IMG/VR virus record: IMGVR_UViG_2740892234_000020
Source: a virus
Lineage: Duplodnaviria > Heunggongvirae > Uroviricota > Caudoviricetes
Strand: one strand, 5' to 3'
DNA: 36,453 bases
Each line of letters begins with the position of its first letter. The first letter of the stretch is position 1. Below, one piece after another: positions 33,001 through 36,000 of this stretch. Made by a program: the position numbers.

Positions 33001-36000
33001 TTCCACTGAAGAGAGGCAAAGGGTCTTTTCTCTTGTGAGCCATAGATATCAACTAACTCTTGATGTTAAGGCAGCACAAAGTTCTATTAATCATGTAATA
33101 ATGGGGAATGCTTCTTTTGGCAAGAAAATAGATACTCTTTGTGATAGTATGAGCCGGGATGTAAAAAATCGTACGGCAGATTGCATAGCAAACTCGCTTG
33201 CAGACAAGTTTTACCAGAAACATATCGAGCCGGATATTGATATTGTAAAACTACGAAATGAGATCCCAGATTATTTGAGGTGTACTATACAGGCATAAGT
33301 CTCTGGGAGACGACTACGTCAGTATCATTGGTTTTGCTCTGGTAAAAAGAGACGCGGAAAAATGCACAACAGGCGCCATACGTCATGCATGGATTCAGAT
33401 TGCTCATAATTTACCAGTACAGCTATAAATCATAAAGAAAACAGCGGTACGTCGTATGAAAGAACTTACCGCTGTTGGCTGGTGAATTTTTCGATAGTGC
33501 GAGTATTGAATGATTTCCAGCCGTTACCGATTTTACTCGTTAATTAGCGAACAAACCACTCGTCAGCAGACTCCCAGGTATCTTTCAGAGTTTCCTGAAC
33601 AAAAGTTTTAGCTGAATCTTTATCGGCAGTGCGCGTAACAGAAAGGCCATCGTTGCTGGTGGTTTTTACGATCACCTCTACATCGTCATAACGCTTACTG
33701 ATGCGCCGAGTTAATTCTTCCTTTAACGCATCCACAGCACCGTTTGGCATTTTAGTCATTTTCTCTTTGGCTATGCAGATTTCAATACGCATAAAAATCC
33801 CTCTACACTGTGTTTGTATACAGTGTTATTTTTGTCTGTATAAATAAACAGTGTCAAGAGGTCTTGTTTCTGCTCTTTTGGAGTTCTTCAAAACGATTAT
33901 GTAAAGATTTCGGATACAGTTCGGTATATACCTGCCATAGCACGTTTAATGAACGATGCCCTGTAACTTGAGCGACTTCCTCAATACTAAAACCAGCCTC
34001 AAATAAGCGACTTGCCCCTTCTCTACGCAAATCATGATATCGCAGATCTTTAATACCTAATTTGCTTCTTACCCTCTGAAATCCTGCGGTAACAGAAGTG
34101 CTGTTATATGGAAAAATGAATTCTGATTTTTTTGGTTGTCGCTGGACGATATCCCAGGCTTCCCCAAGCAAGGCAACTTTCATATGGTTACCTTCCTTTT
34201 TACGTGGATCTTTCCTATCTCTTACTAGTATAGATTTTTGTTCTTGGTCGAGATCTTCCCATCGTAACCGGCATACTTCTCCGATTCGCATACAGGACCA
34301 CACAGAAAATTTGAGGATATCAACGAACGGAATTTTTGAGCATTTATGAGTAGATCGTTGTTGAAGGCCTTCAATGAGCATGTCCAGTTCATCAGATGCT
34401 GGTCTACGATTACGACGGTTTGATTTACCAATCAAACCGAGTTTAAGTAGATATGGACGAGCGCTTTTCGCCGGGTTTGATGTGTAATTGATTCCGTATA
34501 CAGGTTTTGCCGCATCCAGAACACTGCCAAGATAACTAACATCGTGGCTGACTGTTGCTGGGCCTGCACCAGCGTTGTTTCTTAGCCTGCAATGTTCAAT
34601 TACGTCATTTTCTGTCAGTTCAGATAGTTTGATCGCGGATATGTCACTATCCATAAGCAGTTCCAGCACATATCTTTTAGTTCGGCCTGCTTTACCTCCG
34701 GCATTTGGGTCATTTAAATATTTGTGTAGTAAGTCACGGACTGTAAGTCCATCAACAGCATTTGATGATGGAATGCCATATAGATCTAATTCCATCACTT
34801 TCTGTGCGCCCCATGTTTTGGCATGAGCATGTTTAGGGAATGTTTTGCTTTCTCTGTAAGTGATAACACCTTTTTCTTTGATAATCACATTACAGCGATA
34901 GCGTGGTGTGCCATCGGATTTTAGTCGTTTCTCTATGTTATAGTACGCCATTACACGACCTCGTTATTTCGGGTTCCCATAAAACGTGGGAACCTGTGCG
35001 GGAACCTAACGCGAGAAAAATAGCCTGAAATGTTCAAAAATGCACGATAATCCTGAAACACAGAAAACTAATCAAACCAGCGTGATGCCTGAAAAAACTG
35101 GCGCTTACTGGAGTTCTCGGTTTAGCATTGCTCCTATGCTCGACTGGACGGACAGACATTGCCGCTATTTCTTGCGTCTGCTTTCCCGCAATACGTTGCT
35201 TTATACCGAAATGGTGACCACAGGGGCGATTATTCACGGTAAAGGTGATTATCTGGCGTACAGTGAAGAAGAACATCCGGTAGCGTTGCAACTGGGCGGT
35301 AGCGATCCGGCGGCGCTGGCGCAGTGTGCAAAGCTGGCAGAAGCGCGCGGATATGATGAGATCAACCTGAATGTCGGCTGCCCGTCTGACCGGGTGCAGA
35401 ACGGCATGTTTGGTGCGTGTCTGATGGGTAATGCGCAGCTGGTTGCCGACTGCGTGAAAGCGATGCGCGATGTGGTGTCGATTCCGGTGACGGTGAAAAC
35501 GCGTATTGGCATCGACGACCAGGACAGCTATGAATTTCTCTGCGATTTCATCAATACCGTTTCCGGCAAAGGCGAGTGTGAGATGTTCATCATCCACGCA
35601 CGTAAAGCCTGGCTTTCGGGGTTAAGCCCGAAAGAAAACCGTGAAATCCCGCCGCTCGATTATCCGCGTGTGTATCAACTGAAGCGTGACTTTCCGCATC
35701 TGACAATGTCGATTAACGGTGGTATCAAGTCGCTGGAAGAGGCCAAAGCACACCTGCAACATATGGATGGCGTGATGGTCGGGCGCGAGGCGTATCAGAA
35801 TCCGGGTATTCTGGCGGCGGTAGACCGGGAGATCTTTGGTTCCTCGGATACCGATGCCGATCCGGTGGCGGTAGTGCGCGCCATGTATCCGTACATTGAG
35901 CGTGAACTCAGCCAGGGGACGTATCTCGGCCATATTACCCGGCATATGCTGGGTTTGTTCCAGGGTATTCCTGGCGCGCGGCAGTGGCGGCGTTATTTAA

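Follow-up and report, generated by a model that had tools for sequence, protein, structure and literature searches.

Phage 21 and e14 insert inside a coding gene, icd, and keep it intact because a diverged duplicate of the displaced end, in their case the 3' end, takes its place. The DNA studied here, a stretch of 36,453 nucleotides classified in Caudoviricetes (IMG/VR virus record IMGVR_UViG_2740892234_000020, hereafter the window), differs from these examples in that the 5' end of a host gene, dusA, is replaced, so that start codon, ribosome-binding site and presumably the promoter become phage DNA. We conclude with high confidence that the window contains a right-hand attachment junction (attR), at which a tyrosine integrase of the dusA-associated integrase (DAI) family has inserted a lambdoid prophage into the 5' end of Escherichia coli dusA.

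Elements of this family share an integrase gene at the 5' end of dusA, an element-supplied dusA 5' end and semiconserved 21-bp flanking repeats, with a prtN homologue in 64% of the islands (Farrugia 2015, PMC4482086). According to the same study the element replaces the 5' end of dusA and supplies a replacement beta-1 strand, circular excision with restoration of native dusA was shown for islands of Acinetobacter and Pseudomonas, and some family members use non-cognate sites. Its Table S1 includes the E. coli strains ETEC (enterotoxigenic) H10407 and O157:H7 EC4115 as carriers of dusA-specific integrases (PMC4482086). A second described system is phage 1720a-02 (Phi-stx2dact, KF030445), which integrates ~100 bp into dusA of Citrobacter rodentium and provides an in-frame phage-encoded dusA'; there, 0.44% of the junction reads represented attP regenerated from excised circles (Balasubramanian et al., PLoS Pathog 2019, PMC6328086). 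More generally, dusA is a documented insertion site of Shiga toxin (Stx) phages, including Stx1a Lys8385Vzw, Stx2k, Stx2a phiSTEC1588 and Stx2d 1720a-02. The dusA-targeting arrangement is therefore not new: descriptions date back to 2015, and the family as well as essentially identical E. coli instances are known.

The locus in the window follows this scheme closely. The int gene (33854-34951, minus strand) encodes a dusA-associated tyrosine integrase of 365 amino acids (Pfam Phage_integrase PF00589, 1.1e-20), and dusA (35040-36077, plus strand) a protein of 345 amino acids (TIGR00742 DusA, 6.5e-175). The two genes are divergent and the 88-bp gap between them (34952-35039) separates both start codons; the open reading frame (ORF) coordinates thus confirm the statement of an earlier note on this DNA that int lies 88 bp from dusA and is transcribed away from it, and the DusA N-terminal residues quoted there are exact. 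That note had also taken the enzyme for a dusA-specific integrase, which agrees with its 99-100% identity to the two E. coli integrases of Farrugia 2015 Table S1 (EC4115 100%, as rounded in the alignment summary; H10407 99%); identity is 98% to the integrase of mEp460, a free lambdoid phage sequenced from virions (JQ182728), and 361 of 364 residues (99%) to that of 1720a-02. The EC4115 and H10407 elements share with the element described here the dinI-int(365 aa)-88 bp-dusA layout and the same attachment core; in addition, they supply the dusA 5' end, beta-1 strand included, and have a PrtN-family gene near the far end. In comparison with these elements we find nothing substantively different.

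The dusA gene of the window is a composite of two sequences. Relative to K-12 MG1655, nucleotides 1-104 carry 18 differences, while the 934 nucleotides from 105 to 1038 carry 5, all of them silent. Divergence falls from 17% to 0.5% exactly at the attachment core (Fisher p = 5.6e-15 for 18/104 vs 5/934 nt), and this step is a real discontinuity, not chance. The alignment upholds the earlier proposal of an element-encoded dusA 5' end joined to an otherwise typical gene. The phage-encoded substitute (35040-35143, plus strand) runs over codons 1-34 and two further nucleotides and takes in the beta-1 strand RFSIAPM, and the host-derived remainder (35144-36077, plus strand) is fused to it in frame.

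At the protein level, the window DusA differs from that of K-12 MG1655 by 10 substitutions (G3D, S5P, M7T, I10T, A15V, D21G, V22A, H23Y, G26S and V30I), all within residues 3-30 and none in residues 31-345. The Dus domain (PF01207) covers residues 30-340 and the TIGR00742 alignment begins at residue 27; only G26S and V30I are counted within the TIGR00742-aligned region, and V30I alone within the Pfam domain. The crossover thus falls at the very start of the conserved Dus domain (motif APM-LD-WTD), a position that fits the argument of Farrugia for a replacement beta-1 strand. Since 8 of the 10 substitutions fall in a poorly conserved N-terminal extension, the chimeric DusA would be expected to stay functional.

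The crossover was mapped with a four-way alignment of attB (K-12), attL (2013C-3264), attR (the window) and attP (mEp460), and with a seven-way version that adds H10407 and EC4115. A restored attB is expected to contain CCAATGCTCGACTGGACG and a circular attP CCTATGCTCGATAGGATG, the P' arm corresponding to the GGATGTACCGTTTTTGAAAAAC region. In the four-way alignment the left flank is host sequence in attB and attL and phage sequence in attR and attP, while the right flank is host sequence in attB and attR and phage sequence in attL and attP. The only uninterrupted block common to the four sites is the att core ATGCTCGA, at 35136-35143 in dusA codons 33-35, which lies in the interval of about 35040-35150 where the core had been predicted. 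Strand exchange takes place within ATGCTCGA. Read as its reverse complement, the published C. rodentium attB, TCCAGTCGAGCATGGGAGC, is the same site, and a core of seven bases is reported for it (PMC6328086). That attB does not mark the seven bases, and we infer from its sequence that the 7-base core of phage 1720a-02 most likely lies within ATGCTCGA.

The sequence from the integrase start to the core (34952-35143) differs from the mEp460 attP at 1 of 192 nucleotides, at position 35059. Because the remaining 191 match the attP of a free phage, we assign the whole stretch to phage DNA. It is also near-identical to the end of phage 1720a-02, and the matches of the window with mEp460, Lys8385Vzw, SKA5, phiSTEC1575-Stx2k and 1720a-02 all run through int and end at ~35143-35146.

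The counterpart of this junction is found in other genomes. The earlier note expected a copy of the core at the far end of the element (attL); a search of the window that allowed up to 3 mismatches gave no second att copy, and attL was located in the complete genome 2013C-3264, whose junction is 100% identical. There, 47 kb upstream and beside yjbM, a 105-bp pseudogene is annotated as 'tRNA-dihydrouridine synthase, missing C-terminus'. Up to ATGCTCGA this stub shows no difference from the native 5' end of K-12 dusA, and phage sequence follows; a 105-bp dusA stub after yjbM is also present in EC4115. Around ATGCTCGA, 16 of 21 positions agree between attL and attR, a value taken from 2013C-3264 as a genome with an identical junction.

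Taken together, these comparisons leave hardly any room for the explanation that the dusA 5' divergence is ordinary host allelic variation and the integrase merely lies upstream. The variant 5' end is present on free phage genomes as part of attP, the native 5' end persists as a separate stub at attL, and the divergence drops precisely at the core, whereas the sole point in favour of allelic variation is that the chimeric gene is annotated as normal dusA (PGAP labels the same chimeric protein intact DusA, WP_000543841.1). Native allelic variation was accordingly rejected on the att alignment, the divergence step at the core and the free-phage attP copies, and we regard it as scarcely credible.

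With attR in dusA as the preferred reading, integration can be described as follows. The circular phage carries in its attP a ~135-bp imitation of the dusA start, consisting of ~30 bp of upstream sequence and codons 1-35 and ~83% identical to the native sequence. Int swaps strands inside the common core ATGCTCGA in dusA codons 33-35, and integration fuses host dusA from nucleotide 105 onward in frame to the phage-encoded start, giving attR. In the same event the region upstream of dusA is replaced by the phage 88-bp int-dusA spacer, and the native first 35 codons are left as a dead stub at attL, beside yjbM. At the level of sequence comparison, four components of this scheme are established: 34952-35143 derives from phage, the core is common to the four sites, genomes with an identical junction have the native stub at attL, and the integrase is intact. 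Integration at the dusA site and excised attP circles have been shown experimentally for the 99%-identical integrase of 1720a-02. A PrtN-family gene (PF11112) is located near attL, and its product is a candidate directionality factor.

The spacer (34952-35039) is phage-derived, forms the P arm of attP and is identical to that of mEp460 and 1720a-02. It contains three repeats of the GGGAACC type, at 34970-34979 (inverted), 34987-34994 and 34999-35006; in the mEp460 attP five such repeats flank the core, three in the P arm and two in the P' arm, and exact copies of TGGGAACC occur just twice in the whole 36-kb window, both times in the spacer. These repeats may represent arm-type binding sites of the integrase. 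In addition, attP presents TCCTA/TAGGA in inverted orientation around TGCTCGA, an arrangement consistent with core-type sites flanking a 7-bp overlap. With its native upstream region displaced, dusA would be transcribed from phage DNA, probably from a replacement promoter within the spacer.

The integrase itself has a complete catalytic set. The residues R222, K247, H306, R309, H332 and Y342 are all present and invariant in an alignment of 14 integrase sequences, and the R, HxxR, H and Y motifs align with those of XerA (5hxy). Among 75 relatives (52-99% identity) with enough upstream DNA, dusA is directly upstream and divergent in 54, and these dusA-associated relatives come from Enterobacterales, Vibrionales, Alteromonadales, Aeromonadales and Oceanospirillales. 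The remaining 21 (52-66% identity) lie away from dusA at assorted loci, with no common alternative target; therefore some integrase subclades have changed target, in agreement with the remark of Farrugia on non-cognate sites. At such non-dusA loci we observed an adjoining DEAD-box helicase-like ORF in two Xenorhabdus cases and an ORF of 334-339 amino acids in two Serratia cases.

Three points weigh against our interpretation. First, the int contig contains neither attL nor the remainder of the element, and it therefore gives no measure of element size, completeness or excision competence in this strain. Second, a promoter scan found no sigma-70 consensus site of at least 9/12 in the 88-bp spacer. 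Third, residues 1-117 of the integrase contain no Pfam arm-binding domain, as would be expected of a heterobivalent (lambda-type) integrase, in a scan at E <= 5. None of the evidence contradicts an attR in dusA, and the interpretation given in the earlier note is supported in every respect tested.

A different question is whether the int gene and attR are what is left of a decayed prophage that can no longer move, comparable to the 10.9-kb dusA remnant of O157:H7 EC4115. That remnant carries a near-identical integrase, 'phage remnant' dusA elements in O157:H7 appear in Table S1 of Farrugia (PMC4482086), and the 47-kb relative in 2013C-3264 has a frameshifted terminase, J and ymfL. In the window, however, the integrase ORF is intact with all its catalytic residues, and its 5.3-kb contig shows 1-3 mismatches against the full-length prophages of 2013C-3264, 13E0780 and OkiPb01683 and not the layout of the EC4115 remnant. 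Furthermore, attL is intact in 2013C-3264, the one such genome examined for attL, and decay of structural genes alone would not prevent excision. We therefore consider a remnant unlikely, though less so than the other alternatives weighed here.

The EC4115 locus differs in one detail of its junction. When its positions 11585-11655 are compared with window positions 35100-35170, the phage-to-host switch in dusA lies ~16-20 nt upstream of the ATGCTCGA core, and GCGTTGCACCAATG is host-type. This shifted switch suggests gene conversion or homologous exchange between the attL and attR copies of the dusA 5' end, which are 83% identical.

How far the dusA element extends to the left is determined by the structure of the window, which is a gapped scaffold with four runs of exactly 10 N, at 11610-11619, 11951-11960, 12360-12369 and 31172-31181. 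Two of the gaps have near-duplicate contig ends (11888-11950 vs 11962-12024, 97%; 12273-12359 vs 12371-12457, 95%). The possibility that the Ns are masked bases in a contiguous sequence was rejected, as all four runs lie at homology breakpoints and two have near-duplicate ends of 63-87 nt. The last run splits off the contig with int and dusA, and the implicit assumption of the earlier note that the rest of the window is the same element is unsupported. This gap is the left limit of the dusA-element assignment, and only 31182-35143 is assignable to the element within the window.

The sequences at the two sides of the last gap are of different types. On the right, 5,272 bp (31182-36453) align with a single mismatch to the right end of the 47-kb lambda-type dusA prophage of 2013C-3264. 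On the left, 20000-31171 is 99.97-99.98% identical to 933W/Sp5-type Stx prophages, with their LPD38 giant protein, ygiW and hok. In a search of 5,426 complete E. coli genomes the two gap flanks were not found together in any genome, nor in any phage record, and no complete E. coli genome or phage record contains 24000-36453 in one piece. Strain 13E0780 contains both flanks in almost exactly the form seen in the window (3 mismatches each), yet they are 1.7 Mb apart.

Further information comes from the sequence that normally lies beyond the truncated NleG gene at the start of the int contig. We collected nine dusA-linked contigs, defined as those with this NleG and the same int-dusA junction. 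On the far side of this truncated gene, the complete genomes examined and seven of the nine contigs have a gene for the C-terminal part of a lambda-type tail fibre; where the sequence extends far enough, the remainder of the tail fibre, Lom and J come next. In the other two, which are draft contigs, the sequence breaks off shortly after NleG, close to the point at which the int contig of the window begins; that int contig itself starts exactly at the end of this repeated tail-fibre gene. Because the gap flanks never occur together, the tail-fibre gene follows NleG elsewhere and the flanks in 13E0780 are 1.7 Mb apart, the 31 kb of Stx-type phage DNA most likely belong to a different prophage, placed beside the int contig by scaffolding.

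The alternative is that the join is real and that the integrase is owned by the 933W/Sp5-like short-tailed Stx-type phage of 1-31171, a recombinant with a dusA module. In it, a 933W/Sp5-type late region would pass, just after hok, into the right end of a lambda-type prophage with its NleG/TrcA-dinI-int(dusA) genes. If true, it would be a previously unsequenced recombinant, by which a podovirus-type Stx phage gains a dusA integration module. In favour of this reading, the two blocks lie side by side in the window, the contigs within 1-25000 follow the order of real Stx2a prophages, and Stx phages that use dusA are documented. Nevertheless, the blocks are joined by 10 N without overlap, and such a fusion would have to be reconciled with the separate positions of the flanks, the tail-fibre gene found wherever the sequence continues beyond NleG and a contig start that coincides with the end of that repeated gene. 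We judge a real join very unlikely and retain a scaffolding join between two prophages.

Several features of the Stx-type part were recorded in passing. The region 10900-12030 is a collagen-like (Gly-X-Y) repeat region of a tail-fibre gene, with a GC content of 0.645, an AT skew of 0.48 and several repeat families of 63-78 nt; 3 of the 4 assembly gaps lie in it or just after it. A single ORF of 2,806 amino acids (21469-29889) is of a kind typical of 933W/Sp5-type Stx phages and is elsewhere annotated as LPD38 domain-containing; ygiW-like and hok/mok genes come after it. An Rfam scan of the whole window returned 0 matches at the gathering thresholds, including no hok/sok-type RNA.

Inside the right end of the prophage, int is preceded in the map by a dinI-like gene (33544-33792, minus strand; Pfam DinI 1e-19), a conserved int neighbour at this end of these prophages; the order dinI-int-dusA is the same in mEp460, H10407 and EC4115. 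The dinI gene is preceded by an SOS-type control region (33805-33857). It includes a LexA-box-like palindrome CTGT-N8-ACAG (33807-33822) and a promoter-like site (33857-33828), whose -35 TTGACA overlaps the int stop codon and whose -10 ends at 33828. The palindrome forms part of a hairpin (33805-33826) that the scan also flagged as a terminator-like hairpin downstream of int.

Next to this module, just inside the prophage end, is a block of type III effector cargo (31245-33298) with a GC content of 0.37-0.40 vs ~0.52 in the phage body. It consists of a truncated NleG (31245-31724, plus strand) and a full NleG (31876-32526, minus strand), with Pfam T3SS_NleG scores of 6e-47 and 2e-46 for the two ORFs, and of a WxxxE/TrcA effector (32708-33298, plus strand; NCBIfam T3SS_WxxxE_eff 5e-56) annotated as TrcA or 'bfpT-regulated chaperone'. 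This cargo is the part that varies among the related elements: EC4115 has three NleG genes beside int, H10407 has invertase and tail-fibre assembly genes, unlike the window, and mEp460, which shares the DinI-Int module and the attP sequence, has no NleG/TrcA cargo beside dinI. Phage 1720a-02 is nearly identical to the window from int to core; in contrast, it is an stx2d carrier studied in C. rodentium, and the 47-kb related prophage of 2013C-3264 has no annotated stx. Directly inside attL, the 2013C-3264 prophage carries genes for a Panacea-domain protein, two small hypothetical proteins and a CoiA-like protein, which may be accessory or defence cargo.

In the same genome search, the 3-kb dinI-int-dusA-pspG block was found at 100% identity in five genomes, and with a coverage of at least 80% in 731 of the 5,426 (about 13%), which carry the junction. 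As a discovery the locus is thus of little value: it is the correct recognition of a described and experimentally shown system that is present in about 13% of complete E. coli genomes. Its consequences are more practical. Until long reads confirm the link, the adjoining Stx-type phage is not to be placed at the dusA site, and for annotation the exact prophage boundary is 35143/35144. The 'intact' dusA of such strains is a phage-host chimera, in which the first 35 codons and presumably the promoter are phage DNA.

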